From an uncultured delta proteobacterium (lineage in GTDB: Bacteria; Myxococcota; Myxococcia; Myxococcales; Anaeromyxobacteraceae), in assembly GCA_963828255.1 (NCBI GenBank), contig CAWHDZ010000003.1:96001-160000 (forward strand): a DNA stretch of 64,000 bases, in the 5' to 3' direction. Within the stretch, counting starts at the first letter, position 1. Each line of letters opens with the position of its first letter. The notes below the pieces were generated by a model. It was not told where the DNA came from. It searched no databases and saw only the letters and a program-made list of their open reading frames with translations. The translations under genes and the position numbers were made by a program. Shown here piece by piece: positions 4,793-60,638 of this stretch.

Positions 4793-6166
4793 ATGATGAG
4801 ACTATGCCCGGTCGCCTTCTCGACGTTGCTCGCTACTCTCATCCTGCTCGCACTGCCTGGCGAGGCCATGGCCCAGGCAAGCGGCGTGCTTTTTCCGCCG
4901 AGCATCGCCATCACGAATTACGACCGGGTACTCGTCGGCCAGGAGGAGGCGCTGGAGGCAGGTGCCTTCGTGGCGCGGGTGGGTGACACCACCTCGGGCT
5001 GGTACAACCCGGCGGGCATGGCCAGCGTGACCCGGAGCGCGATCGGTGCTAGCGCCAGCGGCTTCGAGACCGACGTCCTAGGCTTGCAAGGCGTGGGCAA
5101 ACAGCGCGGAGGCGGGATGACCATCTACCAGCTTCCCTCCTTCTTCGGTGCGGTGCTGGGCCGGGACGTAATTGACTCGGAGTACTGGCGGATCGGTCTT
5201 ACCATCACGAAGCCGACCTCCTGGAACCAGGAAATCGTCGGCGGGCTCGCTGGGACCAGGACCGTCCTCTATTCCTCCCACGTCAACCTCTCGACCCTCG
5301 TCCCGACCTTCTCGGCGAGCTACTCGCCCTTCCCGGCGTTGCGTTTCGGCGCCGGGATCGGCGTGGCAATCACCTCGCTCTCGGAGGTCCAGTCCTTCAC
5401 GGAGCAGGTGGCACAGCCCGCCTCCGCAATTGGGTTCCTCCGGACGCTTGACGGAAGCGGGTCGATCTGGAATCTGACCGGAACGCTCGGCGTGCAGTGG
5501 GACGTGATGGATCACGTCGTCCTGGGAGCCATGGTCCGCCTCCCGGGCCTGAAGATCGTCCAGAGCGGGAGACTCTCCTACTCCAATTTCGACGCTCGGA
5601 GCACGCCCTGGAACCAGACCACGTTCAACGACCAGGACGCCACCTTCGACTACCGCCTGCCGTTCGACGGGAACGTCGGCCTGGCGTGGCGCTCCAGGAA
5701 CTTCGAGATCGAGGCCGACCTGCGGTTCCACAGCGCAATCTCCCCGTATACCCTGCTCGCTAGCAACCAGCCAATCTCGGTTACCTCGACCGACCTCGCG
5801 GGGAACCCGGTGTTCTCGACTCAGACTTTCCCCGGCGTGACCAACGGTGCCCGCGCCGTCTGGAACGTAGCGGTCGGGGGGCGCTACAACCTGAACGAGA
5901 CGTGGAGCTTCCATGGGGGCTTCTTCACCGACGGCTCCCCCACCGATCAAGCCGGGGAGAATCTCTTCCGGAGCGTCGACATGTACGGGGTCACCTTGGG
6001 CGCGAAGATCCGCAGCGATCACCTGTCGGGCTCGCTCGGTTTCGGCTACGCCTGGGGCAGTTCGCCGGAGTTCTCCTTCAACGACACCGCGAGCGGCACG
6101 CCGATCACGACCCGGCTCACCATCACGAGCCTGAGCCTCCTGTACGCCGTCGCGTACAAGTTCTGA
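4793..6166 (+). CDS. Outer-membrane beta-barrel, FadL/OmpP1-like
   Basis: Signal peptide, GAFVARVGD..SGWYNPAG, C-terminal AYKF; RBS AGGAGA at 4781. Confidence 0.7.
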   Translation: MMRLCPVAFSTLLATLILLALPGEAMAQASGVLFPPSIAITNYDRVLVGQEEALEAGAFVARVGDTTSGWYNPAGMASVTRSAIGASASGFETDVLGLQGVGKQRGGGMTIYQLPSFFGAVLGRDVIDSEYWRIGLTITKPTSWNQEIVGGLAGTRTVLYSSHVNLSTLVPTFSASYSPFPALRFGAGIGVAITSLSEVQSFTEQVAQPASAIGFLRTLDGSGSIWNLTGTLGVQWDVMDHVVLGAMVRLPGLKIVQSGRLSYSNFDARSTPWNQTTFNDQDATFDYRLPFDGNVGLAWRSRNFEIEADLRFHSAISPYTLLASNQPISVTSTDLAGNPVFSTQTFPGVTNGARAVWNVAVGGRYNLNETWSFHGGFFTDGSPTDQAGENLFRSVDMYGVTLGAKIRSDHLSGSLGFGYAWGSSPEFSFNDTASGTPITTRLTITSLSLLYAVAYKF

Positions 6167-6273
6167 GCGGCGCGATGCAGCGGGCCAAACGATGGGGAGG
6201 TTACGCTCACACGCCCGCAAGGCACGAATCGGCGCGGGGCGTCGGTCGGGCGGACGCCGAATGAACTGGCTTC

Positions 6274-6528
6274 TAGGAGTCGACCATCGACTACGTGCCA
6301 GATCGGGCCCCAGTCGGAGGACACGGTTGGCCGGTTCCGCGTGGGTGGCGACATTTACATCGGCACGAACTCGGATCTAGGCGGCGCATTCCGCATCGGC
6401 GGTGGCGCCTCGTTCCTGAATTCCAACCCGTTTGTCATTGGCCTCGACATAGTCCTCGAGGATGGCGGCTACAGCGCTACTGGATTAGCGGACTCCAACT
6501 CGTCGCCTCCCCCGAGCTCCACTCCTAG
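6274..6528 (+). pseudogene. Degraded paralog of the 3' part of the 18681-19328 outer-membrane protein gene
   Basis: Aligns to 19071-19328 (DTVGRFRVG, FRIGGGASFLN, SPE.H.*) with TGG->TAG and indels. Confidence 0.85.
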
Positions 6529-6816
6529 TCGTACCGCCCTCACTCAGATCGGAGATTCACATGAGAAAGTTGCTCGGGGCCTTCCCAAGCTCATCGAGTT
6601 TCAAGCCAACGTCGATCCCGATCGTCTCCTCGCCCTGGGCAAGCAGGCCGGGCTCGTCAAGAGTGCCGGCACTGCGAGCGAGGCCGGAGCGTGGGCTTGC
6701 TTGGTCTATGTGAATTGGAAGTGAGGCCCGGTGTGTGCGGTCACTGCAGCAGAGGCGAACGCTTCCCCCTCCGTCAGGTTCGGCGCAGGTACAGGAGTCG
6801 AGCCGAAGGAGCCACC

Positions 6817-8778
6817 ATGAAATCTCGACTTGCCTGCCGTGAATTGGCGACAGCCGCCCTAGTCTTCGCTGCGGCGACGCTGGTCCCGGCATCAGCCGCG
6901 GCCTGGATCTGGCCGGAGCACCGGGACATCGCGGCCACCGCCGTGAACGACCTCCCCGCCGCCCAGCGCAAGACCCTGGACGCGATGTGGGCCGAGGCGC
7001 GGACGCTGGGGGGGAAGCAGGTCTGCGCGAAGATGGTCGACCCCGGAGCGCAGCCGGACGACGTGAAGCTCGGCGAATGGGAGAAGGTTTGCGTCGACTT
7101 CGCGTCGTTCCCGGCCCTGGCAGCGGACCACTCCTGCTCGGGCGACGAGCTCTGGGCTGCCGTCTCGAAGGAGCCCTGGTCGGTGAAGGTGGTCTGGGTC
7201 GCGGCGAAGACCAAGGAGCGGCTCGCGAACTCCACTAGCCCAGCCCAGCACGAGGACGTCTGGAGCCTCTCCCACCTCGCCATGCAGTACGTCGACCCGC
7301 GCTACCTGACCCGCGCCGAGGGCAACAGCGCCCACTTCCTCGTCCCCCGCGCGTCCGTGCAATCGAAGGAGGACCTGGACGGGTACCTGGACCGGGTGCT
7401 CCTGCCGGCCACCGAGATCAACGCCACCGGGCTCTACGCCGAGTACCACATGCTGGCGCTCCGTCTCGCCGCCCTCTACCACGCCGCGCCGCCGGCCGAG
7501 AAGCCAGAGCTGGCCCGCCGCGCGCTCGTGGCGGAGGGCGTCGCGCTGCACTTCCTCGAGGACTCCTTCTCCGCGGGTCACTACGCCGCGATCTGGGGCG
7601 GCGCGGCCTGGGCCAAGGGCACCCACGACTACTACTCCACCGTGGGTCTCACCACGATGACCTGGAAGGGCGACCTCTTCGCGAGCCACGGCGACGCCAA
7701 CATGACCGAGCAGGACATGAATGTCGCCGCAGTGACCGTCAAGCAGAGCCTGGCCCAGATCGCCAGCGCCGCCGAGGGTCGGATGCCGCTCCCGGAGCGG
7801 GCCCTCTCCCCGTCCGAGAAGGCGATCGAGTCGCTCGACTTCTGCAAGGCGGAGCACCTCCCGCCGCCGCCCGACGAGGCGATGGCCCGCAGCGCGACGG
7901 CCATGGTCCTCCAGAACACCCCGGTCCCGGCCGGCGGCAAGGACGAGATCCATCCGCCCAGGGCCCGCGCCGACATGGGCCTGTTCGTCGGCGCCATCTC
8001 CGGCTACAGCCTGGGCGTGGCCCTCGGCGGCTACGACAGCTGGGCCAACAGCCGCTTGCGGTCGGAGTTCGAGATCGGCGCCCGCGTTGGCTTCGGGCTG
8101 GAGGGGCTCCTCACGAGGAGCATGGACGGGCAGATCTGGCTCCAGGGCGAGCTGGTCTCCGACCCGGCCCAGCTCGACCTCGGGTGCACGACCTGCACGC
8201 CCTACCCGGTGGTCGCCTCGGGCAAGCGGTCCGACGTGGCGGTCCCCCGGGTGGGTGGACGTTCCGCGCTGAAGCTTTCCATCCGGATGCCCTTCTACGT
8301 GGTGCCGTTCGACCTCCTCGTCCTCGGCCCCGTGCTCTACCTGGCCTCTCCCCACGATCTCACCAGCGTGGTCTTCGCCTCGGCGGCGGGAGGGCTCCTG
8401 CCTGTGCAGCGCAAGTTCGAGACCGACATCGGGACCTTTCAGTTCATGCTCGGCCGGGAGGTCGGGTTCACGCTCTGGGGCTTCACTGGCCAGACGAACC
8501 AGTTCATCTTCACGCCCACCGCCAGCGCCGCCGACGCGAAGATCATCAACTACAAGTCGCTCGAGCTCGACTTCCCGGTGATGGAGTACGTCACGCCCAG
8601 GGTCTTCGCGACGACGCTCTCCCTCGCCGCCCTCTTCCAGCTGGGCTTCAACGTCGAGTTCCCGATGGGGGCCGCGTACAACGTCGACGGAGCCCCGTTC
8701 AGCCTGGGGCCGAGCTGGAACGTCTACCTCCGCTTCCGCCTCGACGCCCGAAAGTACTTCGGTGGCACGCCGGACTAG
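6817..8778 (+). CDS. Secreted protein; N-terminal Zn-dependent phospholipase C/P1-nuclease-like domain, C-terminal beta-rich domain
   Basis: Signal peptide ending AAA-W, WIWPEH, HFLEDSFSAGH, THDYY; RBS GAAGGAG. Confidence 0.6.
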   Translation: MKSRLACRELATAALVFAAATLVPASAAAWIWPEHRDIAATAVNDLPAAQRKTLDAMWAEARTLGGKQVCAKMVDPGAQPDDVKLGEWEKVCVDFASFPALAADHSCSGDELWAAVSKEPWSVKVVWVAAKTKERLANSTSPAQHEDVWSLSHLAMQYVDPRYLTRAEGNSAHFLVPRASVQSKEDLDGYLDRVLLPATEINATGLYAEYHMLALRLAALYHAAPPAEKPELARRALVAEGVALHFLEDSFSAGHYAAIWGGAAWAKGTHDYYSTVGLTTMTWKGDLFASHGDANMTEQDMNVAAVTVKQSLAQIASAAEGRMPLPERALSPSEKAIESLDFCKAEHLPPPPDEAMARSATAMVLQNTPVPAGGKDEIHPPRARADMGLFVGAISGYSLGVALGGYDSWANSRLRSEFEIGARVGFGLEGLLTRSMDGQIWLQGELVSDPAQLDLGCTTCTPYPVVASGKRSDVAVPRVGGRSALKLSIRMPFYVVPFDLLVLGPVLYLASPHDLTSVVFASAAGGLLPVQRKFETDIGTFQFMLGREVGFTLWGFTGQTNQFIFTPTASAADAKIINYKSLELDFPVMEYVTPRVFATTLSLAALFQLGFNVEFPMGAAYNVDGAPFSLGPSWNVYLRFRLDARKYFGGTPD

Positions 8779-46394: not shown

Positions 46395-48521
46395 TCAGCG
46401 CGACCTGGACCAGCCCACCCAGGCCTCGTCGTGGACGCGGACATCGGGGAAGCCGAGGTAGCGGAGGATGAAGAAGGCATCGGTGGCGGCGAGGCCGGTG
46501 TCACAGGTGGTGATGACGGTCCTGTCCGGGGTGATCCCGCGTGTCCGGAGCATCCACAGGAGCTCCCTGGGCGGCTTCAGCTTGCCATTGTCCATGATGA
46601 GCGCGCCGAGCGGTAGGCTGATCGAGCCCGGGATGGCGCCGGCCCGGGAGGCCTTCTCGTGCTTCGTCTCGCCCAGGACCCGGTGGATGGCGCGGGCGTC
46701 CACGACCACCACCTTCGGCCTGCCGAGGAGAGCGGCCAGCTCGGCCCCGCTCACCACGAAGTCCGGCCGGGCGGCCCCCCGGAAGATGCGCGGCTTCGGG
46801 GCGAGGGGAGCCGTGCCCGCATGGAAGCCTGCCGCGTGCCAGCCCTCGATGCCGCCGTCGAGGTAGGAGACGTTCGAGGCGCCGGCCCACTGCAGCACCG
46901 CGAGGAGAGCGGTCGCCGTCAGCCCGGACTGGTCGTAGACGACCACGTGATCCTCGGCGGCGATTCCGGCGCGGCCGAGGATGGCCGCCACCTTCTCGTG
47001 CTCCACCAGCGTGAAGGGCCGCTCCGCGTCGGCGCCGGTGCGCAGGCCGCTCGTCAGGGGGTCGAGCCAGACGGCCCCCTCGACGTGCCCCTTGTCGTAG
47101 GCGTCCTTGCCGCGGGCGTCCACGACCACGACCCCCTTCTTCCCCAGGTTCTCGTGCAGCCACCGGGCGTCCACCACCATCCCGGTCCGGACCTTGCTCG
47201 TGTCCACCGAGAGCGGCTGGGTCCGCTCGAGGCGCTTCGGCACCTTGCCGTCGGGGACGACCACCTTCCGGTTGGCCTGCTTCTCGAAGTCCTGGACGTC
47301 GGCGCCCGCCAGGAAGAGCGCCCGGTTCCCGTGGCAGTTGTTGCAGCTTGCCGACTGCCAGGTGCGCCGCTGGACGTTGTGCGGCGAGGCCCGCTTCCAG
47401 GTGGGGACGTTCCCGAAGCCGGTGAAGAGGTCCTTGCCGTAGAAGTCGAACATCTCGGGGTAGGCCGGGACGTGGCGGACCAGCTCGTAGCGGACCCCGG
47501 ATCCGCCTGCGTTCGTCCCCGCTGCGAGCCCGATCTTGAAGGACTCCACCTCGAGCCGGTTCTGGAAGTAGGCCGTCCCCTCGGCATCCTTGCCCACGTG
47601 GCAGCCCCAGCAGTTGACGTAGGTCTGGGAGTGGCACACCTGGCACTGCACCTTCCCCAGGTGGATGGCGTGATCCCGGACCGACCCGTACTGCAGGTCC
47701 TCGTGACAGCCGGTGCAGCGCGCGGCCTCGGCGAGCTGGTACCGGCCAGGGAGCCCCGGGGGGGCCGCCGCGTGCATCTCCCTGGCCCCGTGGCAGGAGG
47801 TGCAGTCCATCGCCCTGGCCGCGTGGACGTCCCCCAGGCCGCGCTCGCCGAAGAACTCGCTGCCCACGCGGCTCCCGTGGCAGGCGGTGCACTGCTCGAT
47901 GGGGTCCGGACGCTTCCGGAAGGTGTGCCCCTCGACGAATCCCCTCCCGGCGAACCCGGGGCGGCTCACGTGACAGCCGCCGCAACTGGTGTGGCAGGCC
48001 GAGCAGTGGTTCCGGCGCGCCTCGTCCGCGTGCCGCCACTTCCCCTGGCTCGCCCGCTTCCCGAGCACCCGGGGGAAGGTGGAGAGCGTGGCGTGCAGCG
48101 AGTCCTTTGCCGTGGCCACGATCTCGCCGTGGCAGTCGCCGCAGGCCTTCCCGGGGCTGGTCACGGAAGGGACGGGGACGAAGCCTGCGTGTGCGGCGCC
48201 CTTGTCGAGGCTGGCCGGATCGCCGCCGTGGCAGCCCTCGCAGGCCAGCGCACCGTGGGTGGTGGCCAGAAACTCCTTCGAGACCAGGACCTTCGCCTGT
48301 GGCTCCAACGGAGCCACCGAGCCGCCTCAACCGGCGCCCGACTGCAGCGCCGATTTCCTTGCGGTGGACACGGCGAGGTTCCGGGCGAGCATGGCCTCGT
48401 CCAGGTGGCAGGTGACGCATCCGGACGGCTCGGCGGCCCGCGAATCCATCGGGACGCCGGCGGCGAGCAGGCCGGAAAACGCGCTCGCCACTGCCGCGAC
48501 GGCCCTGAATCCCTGCGACAT
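46395..48521 (-). CDS. Putative selenoprotein: 11-heme cytochrome c fused to tandem rhodanese domains (708 aa, Sec65)
   Basis: RBS + signal peptide + CVTCH, QSGAG-TGA-GGSVAPLE in frame, 10 more CxxCH, VVVDAR/YLDGG rhodanese pair with TTCDTG. Confidence 0.85.
48299..48317 (-). promoter_or_regulatory. Bacterial SECIS-like hairpin
   Basis: GTGGCTCC-GTT-GGAGCCAC, perfect 8-bp stem beginning 10 nt after UGA, G in the loop. Confidence 0.8.
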
Positions 48522-48666
48522 GTCCCCCTCCTGGTGATGATCCCGACGACAGGAAGACACGCTGCGTCAATCCGAGTCTTGACCCCCGACAGGCCGACCC
48601 ATGTGGGATAGGATGCGCCCCAGCATCGGAATCCACTTCCCTGGGTGCTCCTGGAACTGATCGGCA

Positions 48667-52490: not shown

Positions 52491-55400
52491 TTGGCGGCGA
52501 TCCTCGACACCCTTCCGTTCCGGGACGAGCTGCTCAGCATCGAGCGGCTGGAGGAGCGCGCCCGCGCGCTCGCCGCCCGGTTCACGGTGGATCCCCACCG
52601 GCGCAAGGCCCGGAGCGTCTTCCCTCGCTTCGACGACAACGCCCAGGTCCTGCGGCAGGCCTACCGTGCCCTCGCCGCCGACGTGCACCAGGGGAAGTTC
52701 ATCACCCCGGCGGGAGAGTGGCTCCTCGACAACTACCACCTGGTGGACTCGGAGATCCGCGTGGTCCGGCAGAACCTCCCGCGCGGCTACTACCGGGAGC
52801 TGCCCAAGCTCGCGGCCCGCGACCTGGCGGGCAACGCCCGGGTCTACGCCCTCGCCGTCGAGCTGATCCGCCACAGCGACAGCCGCCTCGATCGGCAGCA
52901 GCTGGCCCGTTTCCTCGACGGCTTCCAGACCGTCGCCCCGCTGACCATCGGCGAGCTCTGGGCCTGGCCCAGCATGCTGAAGCTCGCACTCATCGAGAAC
53001 CTGAGGCGGCTCGCCGACCAGACGATGGACGCCCGTGCGGCGCGGCGGGCCGCCGACGGCTACGTGGCCCGGATCGACGCGGCGGGGAAGGGGGCCGTGC
53101 CACCGCTTCCCCGCTCGCTCCACGCCGCACACGTGGTGCAGCTGATGCACCGCGTCCGGGAGTATGGTCCGCGCCTCTCTGCCCTCCGCCGCGAGCTGGA
53201 TGCGCACGTGGCCCAGGGGGGCCACACGGCCGAGGAGGCCATCCGCAGCGAGCACCAGCGCGAGGCCGCCACCCAGGTGTCGGTGGCGAACGCCATCACC
53301 AGCCTCCGGCTCTGCGCCGAGATCGACTGGCCGCAGTTCGTGGAATCGGTGAGCCTGGTGGAGCGCGTCCTGCAGCGGGACCCCGCCGGGGTGCATGGCC
53401 GGATGGAGTTCCTGAGCCGGGATCGCTATCGCCAGGCCGTCGAGGAGCTCGCCGAGCCCTCCGGGGAGGCCCAGGTGCGCGTGGCCCTTCGCGCCGTGGA
53501 GAGCGCGCGCGAGGTGGCCGAGGTGGAGGGGCCCGGCGCACGCGCCGCCCACGTCGGCCACCACCTCATCGGGAAGGGGCGGCGGGGACTCGAGTCCGAC
53601 GTGGCCTGGCGCCCGGGCTTCGCAAAGGGACTTCGCCGCCTCGCCTTCTCGCACGCCCCGTTCCTCTACCTGGCGGCGATCACCATCGCCACCGCCGGGC
53701 TGGTCGCCGCAGGGGTCGCCTACGCCCGAATGGAGCACGGCACCCTCCGGGGCCAGGTCGCCGTGGCGCTCCTGCTGCTCCTGCCGGCGAGCGAGCTCGC
53801 CATCGCCTTCGTCCAGCGCCTGGCCGCCCACCTGGCCCCTCCGCGGCGCCTTCCACGCCTCGACTTCGAGGCAGGGATTCCCGACGAGGCGCGGACCCTG
53901 GTGGTCGTGCCCACGCTCCTCTCCAGCGTGGCGGGGGTCGACGAGCTGCTCGGGCACGTCGAGGTACTGGCCCTCGGAAACCTCGACCCGCGCATCCACT
54001 TCGCCATCCTGGGAGACTTCACCGACGCCGAGGCGCGGGAGATGCCCGGCGACGAGTCCATCCTCGACACTGCGCGCCTGGGCGTCGAGGCGCTGAACGC
54101 CCGGCTCTCGGAGGGGCGAGGGGACCGGTTCTTCCTGCTCCACCGCACGCGGCAGTGGAACCCGGGTGAGGGTGTGTGGATGGGGTGGGAGCGGAAGCGC
54201 GGAAAGCTCGAGGAGCTGAACCGGCTCCTGCGCGGCGCCACCGACACGAGCTTCGCGGTGCAGGTCGGCGCGACGGCCATCCTCCCGGCGGTGCGCTACT
54301 GCATCACGCTCGACACCGACACCCGTCTGCCGCGGGACGCCGCACGGAAGCTCATCGGGATCATCGCCCACCCGCTCAACAGGCCCCGCTTCGACGCGGC
54401 CAGCGGCAGGGTGACCGAGGGGTACGGGATCCTGCAACCCAGGGTCAGCGTGGCCACGTCGAGCGCGGCGGGCTCACGCTTCGCCCGGATCTTCGCTGGC
54501 CAGACCACGGTGGATCCCTACACGACCGCGGTCTCGGACACCTACCAGGACCTCTTCGGCGAGGGGACCTTCACCGGCAAGGGGCTGTACGACGTGGACG
54601 CCTTCGCCGCCGCGCTGACCGGCCGGGTTCCCGACAACGCGCTCCTCTCGCACGATCTCTTCGAGGGGCTGCACGCGCGAGCGGCCCTGGTCACCGACGT
54701 GGAGGTGGTGGACGACTACCCCTCGAGCGTCCTCACCCATGCGCGCCGGCAGCACCGGTGGGCCCGCGGCGACTGGCAGATCCTGGCCTGGCTCTTCCCC
54801 TTCGTTCCCACCCGCAGGGGGCTGCAACGCAACCACCTCCCCATCCTCTCGCGGTGGAAGATCCTCGACAACCTGCGGCGCAGCCTGCTCGCGCCGGCGA
54901 CCGTGGCCCTCCTGCTCGCCGCGTGGACGATCCTGCCTGGGAGCCCTGCGGTCTGGACGGTGCTGGTCGTCCTGGCCACCGCCTTCCCGCTCCTGCCGCT
55001 GGCGTTCGAGGCCATCGCCGGTCCAACGCCGCAGCAGCCGTGGCGGGCCTTCGTTCGCGGGCTCCGGGAGGACGCCGGGGGCGGGCTGGCGCGCGTCCTG
55101 CTCCAGCTCGCCTTCCTCGCCAACCAGGCCCACGAGATGCTGCACGCCATCCAGATCACCCTGGTCCGGCTCGTGTTCACGCGGCGGAGGCTGCTCGAGT
55201 GGGAGACGGCGGCGGCGAGCGCGGCCCGCGGGGCGGCGGGCCCGGGAGGCGCCGGAGCGCGCCCGTTCTGGGTCGAGATGGCGGCCAGCCCGGTCATCGC
55301 CGGCGCCGGACTCCTCGGGGTCATGGCCTTCCGACCGTCCGCGCTCTGGGCCGCGGCGCCGGTCCTCGGGCTCTGGGCCGTCGCGCCGTTCATCGCCCAT

Positions 55401-58400
55401 GGCCTGAGCCGTGTCGCTCCCCGGCGCGCCCTGGGCGCCGAGGACCGCGCCTTCCTCCTCGCCGTTGCGCGCAAGACCTGGGGATGGTTCGACGCCTTCA
55501 TGGGCGTGGAGGACCACGGCCTGCCTCCCGACAACTTCCAGGAGGTCCCCGATCCGAAGGTTGCGCACCGGACCTCGCCGACCAACATCGGCATGGGCCT
55601 GCTCTCCATCCTGTCCGCCCACGACCTCGGCTTCATCGAGACGGCGGAGCTCGTCGAGCGGGTCGACGCGGCGCTCACCACGGTGGAGGGGCTGGAGCGG
55701 CTCGAGGGGCATCTCTACAACTGGTACGACACGGTGAGCCTGGCGCCGCTCGAGCCCCGCTACGTCTCCACGGTCGACAGCGGCAACCTGGCGGGAGCGC
55801 TCGTCGCGCTCGCCGAGGGGCTCCGTGAGCTGCCTCCGTCGGATGGGCTGGCGGCGCTCGCGACGCGTTCCTCCGCCCTCGCCTACGGGATGGACTTCCG
55901 GTTCCTCTACGACCTGCGGCGCAGGCTCCTGTCGATCGGGTACCGCGCCGCGGACGCCGACGGGCCGGGGGAGCTCGACGCCTCCCACTACGACCTGCTC
56001 GCCTCGGAGGCCCGGCTGGCCAGCTTCTTCGCCATCGCCAAGGGCGACCTGCCGGAGCTGCACTGGTTCCGGCTCGGTCGCACGGTCACCGGCGTCCACG
56101 GCGTGCCCACGCTGCTCTCCTGGAGCGGGACGATGTTCGAGTACCTGATGCCGCTCCTGCTCATGCGGAGCTACCCGGGCACGCTGCTGGAGGAGAGCTG
56201 CCGGGCGGCGGTCCGGCGCCAGAGGGACTACGCCGTGGAGCGGGGAGTCCCGTGGGGGATCTCCGAGTCGGCCTACGACCTCGTCGACCGCCACGAGAAC
56301 TACCAGTACAAGGCCTTCGGCGTGCCCGGGCTGGGACTCAAGCGCGGACTGGGGGACGAGCTGGTGGTCGCCCCCTATGCGGCCGCGCTGGCCACCCTCG
56401 TCGACCCGGAGGCCGCCGTGCGGAACCTGCGCCGGCTCACGGCCGAGGGGCTCGAGGGCGCCCACGGCTACTTCGACGCCGTGGACTTCACGCGGCGTCG
56501 CAGCGACGACCCCGGGGCTCCGGTTCCCGAGAAGGGCCCGGTCGAGGGAGCGATCGTCCGCACCTACCTGGCCCACCACCAGGGGATGACCCTGACGGCG
56601 ATCGCCAATGCACTGCAGGGAAACCGGATGGTGGAGCGCTTCCACGCCGACCCGCGGGTCCGGGCCACCGAGCTGCTCCTCCAGGAGAAGGCTCCCCGGC
56701 ACGCCCCGTTCGCCCGGCCCCGTCCGGACGAGGCCACGACCCGGGCGCCGCCGGTGCCCCCCGTGGAGGTCCGCCGCTTCCGCTCGGCCCACACTCCCTA
56801 CCCGCACGCCCAGTTCCTCTCCAACGGAAACTACACCGCGGTGGTGACCAACGCGGGCGGAGGCTCGAGCTTCTGCCGGGGACGGGCCGTGACCCGATCG
56901 CGCCTGGACGCCACCTGCGACCCGGGAAGCCAGTTCCTCTACCTGCGTGACGTGCGCAGCGGCCGGGTGTGGTCGGCCACCCAGCACCCCACCCCGGGAG
57001 AGGCCGAGGACTACCTCGTGACCTTTGCGGTGGAGCGGGCCACCTTCCACAGGCGAGAGGACGAGATCGGAACACGGCTCGACATCGCCGTTTCCCCGGA
57101 GGACGACGTGGAGGTCCGGCGCCTGGTGGTGACGAACCACAGCGACCGCGTCCGCGAGATCGAGGTGACGAGCTACGCCGAGATCGTGCTGGGACCGGCA
57201 GCCGACGACCTGGCCCATCCCTCCTTCGGAAAGCTCTTCGTGGAGTCGGAGTACGTCGCCGGGAGCGCCGCGCTCCTCTGCCATCGCCGGCCGCGCGCGC
57301 CCGACGACGCACCCGCCTGGGGGCTGCACGTCATCAGCCAGGAGGGCAGGACGCAGGGGCCCGTGGAGTGGGAGACCGATCGGGCCCGGTTCCTCGGACG
57401 GGGACGCAGTCCCCGGGACCCGCAGGCGCTCGACGGACGGTCGTTGACCGGCACCACCGGCGTCCTGCTCGACCCGATCGTCAGCCTGCGGCAGCGCATC
57501 CGGCTCGCCCCGGGCGGCGTGGCCAGGATGTCCTTCGCCACCGGGATGACCGGGAGCCGGGAGACGGCGCTCGCGCTGGCCCAGCGCTACAGGGATCCCA
57601 GCGCCACGGCCCGGACCTTCGCGCTCGCCTCGGCGCACGCGCGGAGCACGCTCCGCCACCTCGGGATCTCGGCCGACGAGGCCCTGGTGTTCGAGCGCCT
57701 GGCCTCGCGCGTGCTGCGGAGCGATGCCTCGCTGCGCGCGCCCTCCGAGCTCCTGGCCCGCACCACCCTCGGGCAGGCCGGGCTCTGGCCGCACGGCATC
57801 TCCGGCGACCTGCCCATCCTGCTCGCACGGGTGGTGACGGCGGACGGGCTCTCGCTGGTGCGGCAGGTCCTGCAGGCACAGGAGTACTGGCGGCTGAAGG
57901 GGCTCCAGGCCGACGTGGTGATCCTGAACGAGCACCCCACGAGCTACCTCGACGAGGCCCACGGCGCGCTGACCGCGCTGCTCGACGACGGCCCGTGGAG
58001 GGCCTGGAAGGACCGTCCGGGCGGGGTGTACCTCCTCCGGCGCGACCGCATGCCCGACGCCGAGCACCTGCTGCTGACCACTGTGGCGCGGGCCATCGTC
58101 AGCGACGACCGGGGCGAGCTGGCACGGCAGCTCGACCGGCCCACCCCGCCCTGGACCGAGCCGCCCGCCCAGGTCATCGCCCCGGCGCCGGCCGCGCAGC
58201 TCGCGCCCGCGCCGGTTCCGCCGCTCGCCCTGGCCAACGGGCTCGGCGGGTTCGCCGATCAGGGGCGCGCGTACGTCGTGGTCCTGGAGGGCGCGGAGGA
58301 GACCCCGTCACCGTGGGTGAACGTCATCGCCAATCCGGGCTTCGGGACCATCGTCTCGGCCTCGGGATCGGCCTTCACCTGGTCCATGAACAGCCGCGAG

Positions 58401-60638
58401 AACCGGCTCACCCCCTTCGCCAACGACCCGGTGACCGACCCGACCGGCGAGGCCATCTTCCTCCGGGACGAGGACACGGGCACGGCCTGGACGCCCACGC
58501 CGGGGCCGCTTCCGCGCACCGGGACCAGCGGGCGCCACGTGGTCCGCCACGCCGCCGGGGTCACGCGGTTCGCCCGGGCGGCGAACGGCATCCGGAGCGA
58601 GCTGGCCGTCTTCGTGCATGACGCCGACCCGGTGAAGTTCTCGGTCCTCACCGTGACGAACGAGGGCCCGGCTCCGCGGCGGCTCGGTGTCTTCGGCTAC
58701 GCCGAGTGGGTCCTGGGGCCGCCGCAGGAGGGCCAGCACCTGCACGTGGTCACGCGACTCGACGAGGAGACCGGGACCATCCTGGCAACGAACTCATGGA
58801 ACAACGAGCTCGCCGGGCGCGTGGCGTTCGCCCACGCGAGCGAGCCGCTCCTCTCCTCCACCGGGGACCGGACCACGTTCCTGGGGCGGAACGGCTCGAT
58901 CGAGGCCCCGGCGGCTCTCCTCCACGCCTCGCTCCACGGCCGGTTCGGGGCCGGGCTGGATCCCTGCGCGGGCCTCCACGTCGCCGTCTCGCTCGATCCG
59001 GGACAGACCCGGCAGGTCGTCTTCCTGCTCGGCCAGGGCAGGGACGGGGCGCACGCGCAGGATCTCGTTGCCCGCCACGGTTCCGTCCCCGCGGCGGAAG
59101 CCGCGCTGGAACGGGTGACGCGCGGCTGGGACGAGACGCTGGGCGCGGTGCAGGTGAGCACCCCCGACGACTCCTTCGACCTCCTCATGAACTGCTGGCT
59201 CCTGCAGCAGGACCTGGGCTGCAGGCTGTGGGCGCGGTCCGGCTACCACCAGCCGGGCGGGGCCTTCGGCTTCCGCGACCAGCTCCAGGACGTGATGGCG
59301 CTCGTGCTGGCCCGGCCCGACCTGGTGCGGGAGCACCTCCTGCGGGCCGCGTCCCGGCAGTTCCAGGAGGGCGACGTGCAGCACTGGTGGCACGAGCCCA
59401 GCGGCCGGGGCACGCGCACGCGCTGCTCGGACGACATGCTCTGGTTGCCCTTCGCGGTCGCGCACTACGTGCGAACGACGGGCGATGCCGCGGTGCTGGA
59501 CGAGAGCGTCCCGTTCCTCTCCGCGCCCGCGCTCCGGCCCGACGCCCAGGAGACCTACGCCCGGCCGGAGGTCGCGGCCGAGCGGGGGACGCTCTTCGAG
59601 CACTGCGCCCGCGCCCTCGATCGCGGGATCACCACCGGCGCCCACGGACTTCCCCTCATGGGAAGCGGGGACTGGAACGACGGGATGAACCGGGTCGGCC
59701 GGGCGGGCAGGGGAGAGAGCGTCTGGCTCGGCTTCTTCCTCCACGCGGTGCTGAACGACTTCGCGCCCCTGTGCGCGTCCCGGGGGGACGCCGCGCGGGC
59801 CGATCGCTATCGGGGCGAGGCCGAACGGCTGGTGGCGGTCCTGGCGCGGGCGTGGGACGGCGAGTGGTACCTGCGCGGCCACTACGACGACGGGGCGCCG
59901 CTGGGGTCGTCGCAGAACGACGAGTGCCGGATCGACTCGATCGCCCAGTCCTGGGCGGTCCTCTCCGGGGCCGCCCCGCCGCGCCTCGCCGACCGATCCA
60001 TGGACGCGGTCCGCACCCACCTCGTCCGCCGGGGCCCGGGCGTCATCCTGCTGCTCGCGCCCCCGTTCGACCACACGGCGCAGGATCCCGGCTACATCCG
60101 GGGCTACCCGCCCGGCGTCCGGGAGAACGGCGGGCAGTACACCCACGCGGCGGCATGGACCGTGATGGCCCTCGCGAAGCTCGGGAGCGGAGACGAGGCG
60201 GCGGAGCTCTTCCACATGCTGAACCCCATCAACCACACGCGCTCGCGCATCGACGTCGAGAAGTATCGAGGGGAGCCCTACGTCCTCGCCGGCGACGTGT
60301 GCGCCCATCCCGACCACGCCGGCCGCGCGGGGTGGACCTGGTACACCGGGTCGGCGGGCTGGATGTACCGGGCCGGGCTGGAGAGCATCCTGGGCCTCCG
60401 GCGACACGGAGCGACCTTCGAGGTGGACCCGTGCGTGCCCGCCTCATGGCCGGAGTACTCCATCACCTGGCGCGTCGGCCGGACCACCTACGAGATCGCC
60501 GTCGCGAACCCGGACCGGGCCTGCCGGGGAGTCGCCCGGGCGGAGCTGGACGGCGCACCGGTCGATCACCGCGCCGTTCCCATCGTCGACGACGGCCGGG
60601 TCCACCAGGTGCGGCTGGTGCTCGGGCCCACCGGCTAG
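52491..60638 (+). CDS. ndvB: Cyclic beta-1,2-glucan synthase (Cgs/NdvB; GT84 + GH94)
   Basis: 2715 aa; [63 protein letters not shown]. Confidence 0.95.

Follow-up and report, generated by a model that had tools for sequence, protein, structure and literature searches.

An in-frame UGA apparently unites two annotated frames in a mis-annotated selenoprotein, an eleven-heme cytochrome c with a tandem rhodanese

Codon 65 of a gene from an uncultured member of the Anaeromyxobacteraceae is a UGA that almost certainly encodes selenocysteine (Sec), and its decoding would join a signal peptide and a first heme to ten other hemes and a rhodanese in one exported selenoprotein (Table 1). The gene lies in a 64,000-nucleotide stretch of DNA, here called the window. 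The original prediction held that two listed open reading frames are one frame split by a single TGA, and this is what we find: the frame is continuous over 2127 nt from an ATG at 48521, and its only stops are codon 65 and codon 709. Reading the TGA as Sec gives a 708-residue product in which Sec65 lies in the context SGAG-U-GGS. As had also been predicted, this product combines 11 CxxCH motifs, one before the TGA (at C35) and ten after it, with a C-terminal tandem rhodanese. C673, in the motif TTCDTG, is its sole Cys besides those of the heme motifs.

Residues 5–25 are hydrophobic (the best 11-mer has a Kyte–Doolittle value of 1.8), and homologues carry plainer signal or lipoprotein peptides at the position equivalent to residues 1–30. 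The downstream reading frame was expected to have no export signal of its own, and its start region indeed contains no strong signal-like stretch, the best 11-mer there reaching 1.2 at most. An AlphaFold model of residues 31–708, with Sec represented by Cys, has a mean pLDDT of 94.3 and a pTM of 0.92. The original prediction placed Sec65 in a flexible linker, as a mobile arm, which the model does not bear out: there the linker is ordered, with a block pLDDT of 82–86.

Table 1 Features of the selenocytochrome–rhodanese gene (positions in the window)
Feature	Positions	Strand	Basis
Whole gene, 708 aa with TGA65 as Sec	46395..48521	-	Frame analysis; AlphaFold model
Shine–Dalgarno AGGAGG, 5 nt upstream of ATG	48527..48532	-	Sequence
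Probable export signal peptide, residues 1–30, predicted cleavage site	48432..48521	-	Hydropathy; homologues
Heme motif 1, CVTCH, residues 35–39, upstream of TGA	48405..48419	-	Invariant in 43/43 covering aligned rows
In-frame TGA, Sec65, G-U-GG motif	48327..48329	-	TGA 98/99, TGC 1/99 readable loci
Bacterial SECIS hairpin, 8 bp stem, GUU loop	48299..48317	-	Conservation, covariation
11-heme cytochrome c domain, residues 31–430	47232..48431	-	Motif count, OTR alignment, fold
Heme motif 4, CSACH, residues 173–177, counterpart of OTR second heme	47991..48005	-	Alignment
Rhodanese domain 1, non-catalytic (Asp530 instead of Cys)	46830..47168	-	Pfam PF00581, residues 452–564
Rhodanese domain 2, bounds approximate, Cys673 (codon 46505–46503), motif C-[DN]-T-G	46398..46750	-	

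A search of 401 genomes of the phylum gave matches in 38 at E ≤ 0.001. Eight of these, this genome included, matched across the site, each with one TGA; the other matches are short, and the ten that were translated resemble octaheme tetrathionate reductase (OTR). We examined 102 loci, drawn from the eight phylum genomes, from 14 of 23 genome-contig matches (the other nine were left out as weak and partial) and from the best 80 of 502 metagenomic matches, and counting the window itself and three duplicates. In this sample, which through the choice of the best metagenomic matches is skewed towards near Sec-type relatives, the site is readable at 99 loci and reads TGA at 98, TGC at one (L044) and TAA or TAG at none, at identities as low as about 35%. 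At these readable loci codon 65 is TGA or a Cys codon, in line with the original prediction. Both flanks of the UGA are kept among them, heme 1 and the G-U-GG motif being conserved.

The best 120 database proteins contain no G-C-GG site and nearly all start directly after it, so the family is routinely truncated by gene callers; the database annotation carries the separate downstream reading frame and calls it a sulfurtransferase. A family profile search returned 1555, 698 and 201 representatives at E ≤ 1e-3, 1e-10 and 1e-30, respectively. Among the best 150, 55 start directly after the Sec site and 40 span the linker, which contains a Cys in 15 of the 40 and neither Cys nor Sec in 25 (P0218 was misplaced by the parser), so the scaffold is possible without a chalcogen residue. 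P0136 is fused to a rhodanese, yet has no Cys or Sec in its linker. It is one of four representatives (with P0149, P0155 and P0157) that have Tyr, Arg, Trp or His at the Sec/Cys position after G(E/G)G. Arg and Trp codons can be one base away from TGA, and Tyr codons are one base away from TGC or TGT; the residues in these four sequences suggest repeated loss of Sec or Cys. A single assembly (L034 and L035) holds an intact copy of the gene and another with a TAA and frameshifts (L034, one of the TGA loci, is frameshifted), the second copy being likely to be an assembly error or a decaying duplicate.

The genome encodes the Sec machinery that the original prediction calls for: selA, selB, selD and a tRNA-Sec (selC) all score above curated cut-offs, and selD itself contains an in-frame TGA. 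Of nine other TGA-bearing genomes tested, eight have selB above the cut-off (the exception is a 2.6-Mb assembly), as does the single Cys-type genome. ARAGORN reports a second tRNA-Sec in this genome (G000:C30:93412-93504) that Rfam RF01852 does not list and that is probably spurious.

A hairpin, GTGGCTCC-GTT-GGAGCCAC, starts at the tenth base past the UGA and places its loop 17 nt from it; the first GTG of the hairpin is the false start chosen by gene callers. The fold is not above chance on this sequence alone (z -1.16; 24 of 200 shuffles are as good), and we consider the element real because it is conserved across homologues. Bacterial SECIS (bSECIS) elements are constrained to a loop of 3–9 nt, a stem of 4–16 bp and a G within the first two loop positions (PMC13188914), at 16–37 nt from the UGA and with an MFE ≤ -7.5 (PMC13188914, Fig. 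2 legend). Scored with our own simplified script for this model, not with bSECISearch, the hairpin of this gene passes, as do 64 of 71 distinct TGA segments, whereas the Cys-type locus does not; among TGAs taken at random from this genome, 236 of 1500 pass. Two-sided changes occur in five of the eight stem pairs across 15 aligned segments, a count that kinship of the sequences can inflate, and each stem pair is retained in 76–82 of 84 distinct segments. The peptide encoded over the hairpin varies while the pairing is retained (VAPLEP 41, VVPLEP 14, VEPLAP 6, VTPLAP 2). TTG encodes the loop Leu in 78 of the 84 segments, although it is a rare codon, used for one of 54 Leu in this gene. The perfect stem noted in the original prediction is confirmed and is conserved with compensatory changes in homologues.

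Were TGA65 a true stop, the region would contain two genes or a pseudogene, in keeping with the separate downstream frame carried by databases and the non-significant fold of the single sequence. We regard this as extremely improbable, because TGA occupies 98 of 99 loci with no TAA or TAG, Cys homologues exist, the SECIS element covaries, the genome has the Sec machinery and the downstream frame lacks a strong signal-like stretch. The homologue counts, the covariation and the machinery all support the readthrough that had been predicted.

The best profile match and the best structure match of the cytochrome domain are both to OTR of Shewanella oneidensis (PDB 1sp3; TIGR04315), with which it shares its fold; the HAO/IhOCC/OcwA/OmhA/MccA multiheme superfamily is also among the closest known systems. 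The eight hemes of OTR correspond collinearly to motifs 3–9 and 11, and motifs 1, 2 and 10 are three additional hemes that OTR lacks. The match has a caveat, in that a seven-heme neighbour of OTR also reached 97.3%; a NapC-like control reached 21.6%. Alignment and predicted structure together show an OTR-like heme core. The OTR HMM itself (TIGR04315, cut-off 375 bits) gives no match for this protein and about 30 bits for relatives. This genome has no TIGR04315 match at E ≤ 1e-30, and all seven other searched genomes of the genus do; G232 and G242 have both OTR and the selenocytochrome–rhodanese family.

In OTR, the catalytic heme is heme 2, which has a Lys ligand. Parts of bioRxiv 2022.02.24.481543 locate the catalytic heme in the N-terminal module. 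From the alignment of motif 4 with the second heme of OTR, we infer that heme 4 is a candidate catalytic heme here. Unlike OTR, the protein does not retain Lys56 or the NNFC cysteine Cys64: the region aligned to these positions (GKxN..NNFC) contains no conserved Lys or Cys, and R156 is near-invariant within it. Nine His residues outside the CxxCH motifs are near-invariant and one, H350 (50/66), is partly conserved. These are too few for 11 hemes, of which at least one is not bis-His. Possible substitute ligands are Met238 (48/66) and Met249 (35/66). R156, R349 and W375 are among the invariant non-ligand residues. Several relatives have additional heme modules, bringing their CxxCH count to 16–19.

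Another OTR-like octaheme gene, L157 (G019:C1:526931-528142, minus strand), has an in-frame TGA and a downstream hairpin at the position of the conserved NNFC cysteine of OTR. It is a predicted second Sec site on the OTR scaffold, whereas Sec in the present family lies in the N-terminal linker.

The C-terminal part of the protein has a tandem rhodanese fold with an inactive N-domain and the catalytic Cys in the C-domain, and is predicted to act in sulfur transfer. Position 530 is Asp in 58 of 64 sequences, and all 64 fused members have Cys673. The tandem rhodaneses TST/MST/SseA and RhdA (1e0c) likewise pair an inactive first domain with a second that bears the catalytic Cys. From these the present protein differs in its fusion to a selenocytochrome and in its C-[DN]-T-G loop; it scores 100.6 bits with the SseA equivalog profile, under the cut-off of 250.

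We counted rhodanese partners at 99 non-duplicate loci, using queries from seven of them; 18 loci are cut off and uninformative. At 80 of the 81 informative loci the gene is fused to a rhodanese or has one beside it in the same orientation, showing that the predicted selenocytochrome is nearly always accompanied by a rhodanese and strengthening the link to sulfur chemistry that had been proposed. The exception, L140 (near 6001-7248), has R-U-RG where G-U-GG is expected and, with its Sec motif thus degenerate, is possibly a decaying member. The single-chain fusion of the original prediction is present in this gene but is one of several forms. Fusion to a C-terminal tandem rhodanese is largely confined to one clade, L006–L008 have an N-terminal rhodanese fusion, and at 18 of 19 unfused loci the rhodanese is encoded separately by the following gene, apparently with an export signal. 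Its product is a single rhodanese domain at some loci and a tandem pair or a lipoprotein at others. Directly downstream of the rhodanese partner at L128 (8025-8972) is an open reading frame related to UshA-like (seleno)proteins (169 bits, below cut-off), and a similar one occurs in L131.

The gene is patchily distributed: of 14 genomes examined in the genus, 5 have it. Named family records include Myxococcota, Nitrospirota and desulfobacterial genomes. No conserved neighbours of the gene are found within the 64-kb window. The window also contains a 2715-aa open reading frame of high GC3 (52491-60638, plus strand), which from its appearance we take to be cyclic beta-1,2-glucan synthase-like. 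Elsewhere in the family, a gene for a NapC/NrfH-like membrane cytochrome adjoins nine loci and is fused in P0179, and formate dehydrogenase adjoins five loci; this genome has homologues of both away from the gene (the NapC/NrfH-like one at C40:171500-172891). The N-terminally fused L160 is surrounded by SQR-like, SorA-like and YedF genes and an OTR gene. In G081, a cluster of selD, a cysteine desulfurase/Sec lyase-like gene, yedF, selA and selB (L158:11155-17839, contig C27) lies about 2 kb from a lipoprotein family member and its rhodanese.

The best functional model is MccSep/ExtKL (GSU2937-2936) of Geobacter sulfurreducens. Like the protein described here, it is a periplasmic multiheme cytochrome c with one Sec specified by a UGA and a SECIS element, is split in annotation and has Cys homologues. 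The rhodanese gene extH is placed in the same cluster as ExtKL by a section of PMC5877670. MccSep has five hemes, one of them with His/Cys239 ligation, and its Sec325 lies in an Ig-like domain at the C terminus (PMC13510729), whereas the present protein has 11 hemes, Sec65 between hemes 1 and 2, a fused rhodanese and no spare Cys outside CxxCH before C673 for heme ligation of that kind. Polysulfide reduction by MccSep takes place with Sec at a heme. The enzyme also reduces selenite, with an approximately sevenfold preference for polysulfide, does not act on thiosulfate or tetrathionate, and was tied to sulfur respiration in 2026 (PMC13510729).

The original prediction pointed to ExtKL and ExtH of Geobacter for comparison. 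The cytochrome is not a homologue of MccSep/ExtKL: NF040886 gives no match at E ≤ 0.1 (the control, L096, scores 342 against a cut-off of 250), a BLAST comparison with the first 285 residues of an ExtKL homologue is at chance level (best E 0.026) and the core is OTR-like. ExtKL was not found in this genome, and MccSep is not among the fold-search rows listed, from libraries that may not include it. The family appears separate from MccSep. The two can occur side by side: the MccSep/ExtKL gene of L096 (6877-7767, minus strand; 342 bits, over the cut-off) is convergent with a family member and adjoins it.

With moderate confidence, we propose that the protein may be a periplasmic sulfane-sulfur (polysulfide or persulfide) reductase in which Cys673 would be the carrier, Sec65 the attacking residue and the hemes the source of electrons. 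Sulfane sulfur from polysulfide or thiosulfate would form a persulfide on Cys673, and attack of the Sec65 selenolate on the S–S bond would give an Se–S bond. Electrons from the quinol pool would reach the heme chain, probably through a NapC/NrfH-like membrane cytochrome, and a heme without a distal His (candidate heme 4) would reduce the Se–S bond and free sulfide. In its working the protein would parallel the pairs MccSep–ExtH and Psr–Sud, though the scaffold differs. Sud serves Psr, a molybdenum enzyme. This proposal follows from the MccSep precedent and from the pairing of sulfur transferases with sulfur reductases, which is described in passages of PMC6378623 and PMC12142623; the former also presents Sud of Wolinella succinogenes as a periplasmic polysulfide-sulfur transferase with high affinity for polysulfide.

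Several features of the family count against sulfane-sulfur reduction. The linker is ordered in the structural model, and in 25 of the 40 spanning relatives, rhodanese-fused P0136 among them, it lacks Cys and Sec. Met238 or Met249 could fill the missing heme ligand, and the protein neither keeps Lys56 and Cys64 of OTR nor has a Cys for MccSep-type His/Cys ligation. Rhodaneses also carry selenium and act in oxidative pathways. The Sec protein might run in the opposite direction or act on other sulfur oxyanions, oxidizing sulfide, polysulfide or thiosulfate or reducing tetrathionate. It would then resemble TsdA, SoxAX or OTR, Sec65 taking the place of the heme-bound Cys and the rhodanese accepting the sulfur. 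Such a role would suit the OTR-like scaffold and the setting of L160 among SQR-like, SorA-like, YedF and OTR genes, and the His/Cys heme of TsdA works in both directions according to a portion of PMC5146829. We nevertheless think it rather unlikely, as formate dehydrogenase (five loci) and the NapC/NrfH-like cytochrome (nine loci) suit a reductive electron supply, and the sole characterised Sec–heme enzyme is a polysulfide reductase that turns over neither thiosulfate nor tetrathionate (PMC13510729).

Selenium itself could be the substrate, with periplasmic reduction of selenite or of Se0/polyselenide, and the rhodanese carrying perselenide, for detoxification, respiration or SelD supply. The gene and rhodanese about 2 kb from the selD/selA/selB cluster in G081 point this way, as do the reduction of selenite by MccSep (PMC13510729) and the association of the ext cluster with selenite reduction in part of PMC5877670. 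However, the sel-cluster context is found at one locus, and there may be other causes for a selenoprotein gene lying near sel genes; the family includes members of the Cys type and members lacking Cys, and MccSep favours polysulfide about sevenfold, making selenium handling distinctly unlikely. We find it improbable, too, that the protein is only an electron conduit or store in which Sec is an axial ligand that tunes one heme and the rhodanese acts separately. The many relatives without Cys or Sec, the extra heme modules of several relatives (16–19 CxxCH) and the one distal heme ligand unaccounted for are consistent with a conduit, but a rhodanese that is almost always present, in one form or another, the compactness of the two-part model (pTM 0.92) and the invariant non-ligand residues R156, R349 and W375 are not what it would lead one to expect.

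A more far-reaching form of the sulfane-sulfur proposal, which we consider possible but rather unlikely, is that the family is a second, independently evolved and widespread Sec–heme enzyme of sulfur respiration on the OTR scaffold. Sec65 would ligate the heme that has no His partner, forming a natural His/Sec heme c, and would receive sulfur straight from the persulfide on the protein's rhodanese domain. Taken together with L157, this would mean that the OTR scaffold has recruited Sec at two positions, the Sec65 linker and the NNFC site.

Our literature searches found no paper on the selenocytochrome–rhodanese family. Word searches of PMC9312934 returned, from the portions searched, only passages on other families, and the main texts of deep-Sep (PMC12013277) and BSepDB (PMC13326102) do not mention cytochromes. 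We conclude that the gene encodes a real, mis-annotated selenoprotein of an apparently uncatalogued Sec–multiheme family; MccSep is the only multiheme selenoenzyme characterised in the literature found. Gene callers remove the signal peptide, the first heme and the Sec of family members, leaving the label sulfurtransferase. If sulfane-sulfur reduction is indeed their function, the family would be a missing marker of sulfur respiration in uncultured sediment bacteria. In fused members, a sulfur carrier, Sec and an electron wire would share one chain, so the feeding of sulfur-reducing enzymes by rhodaneses, a question left open in parts of PMC6378623 and PMC13510729, would become testable with a single protein.
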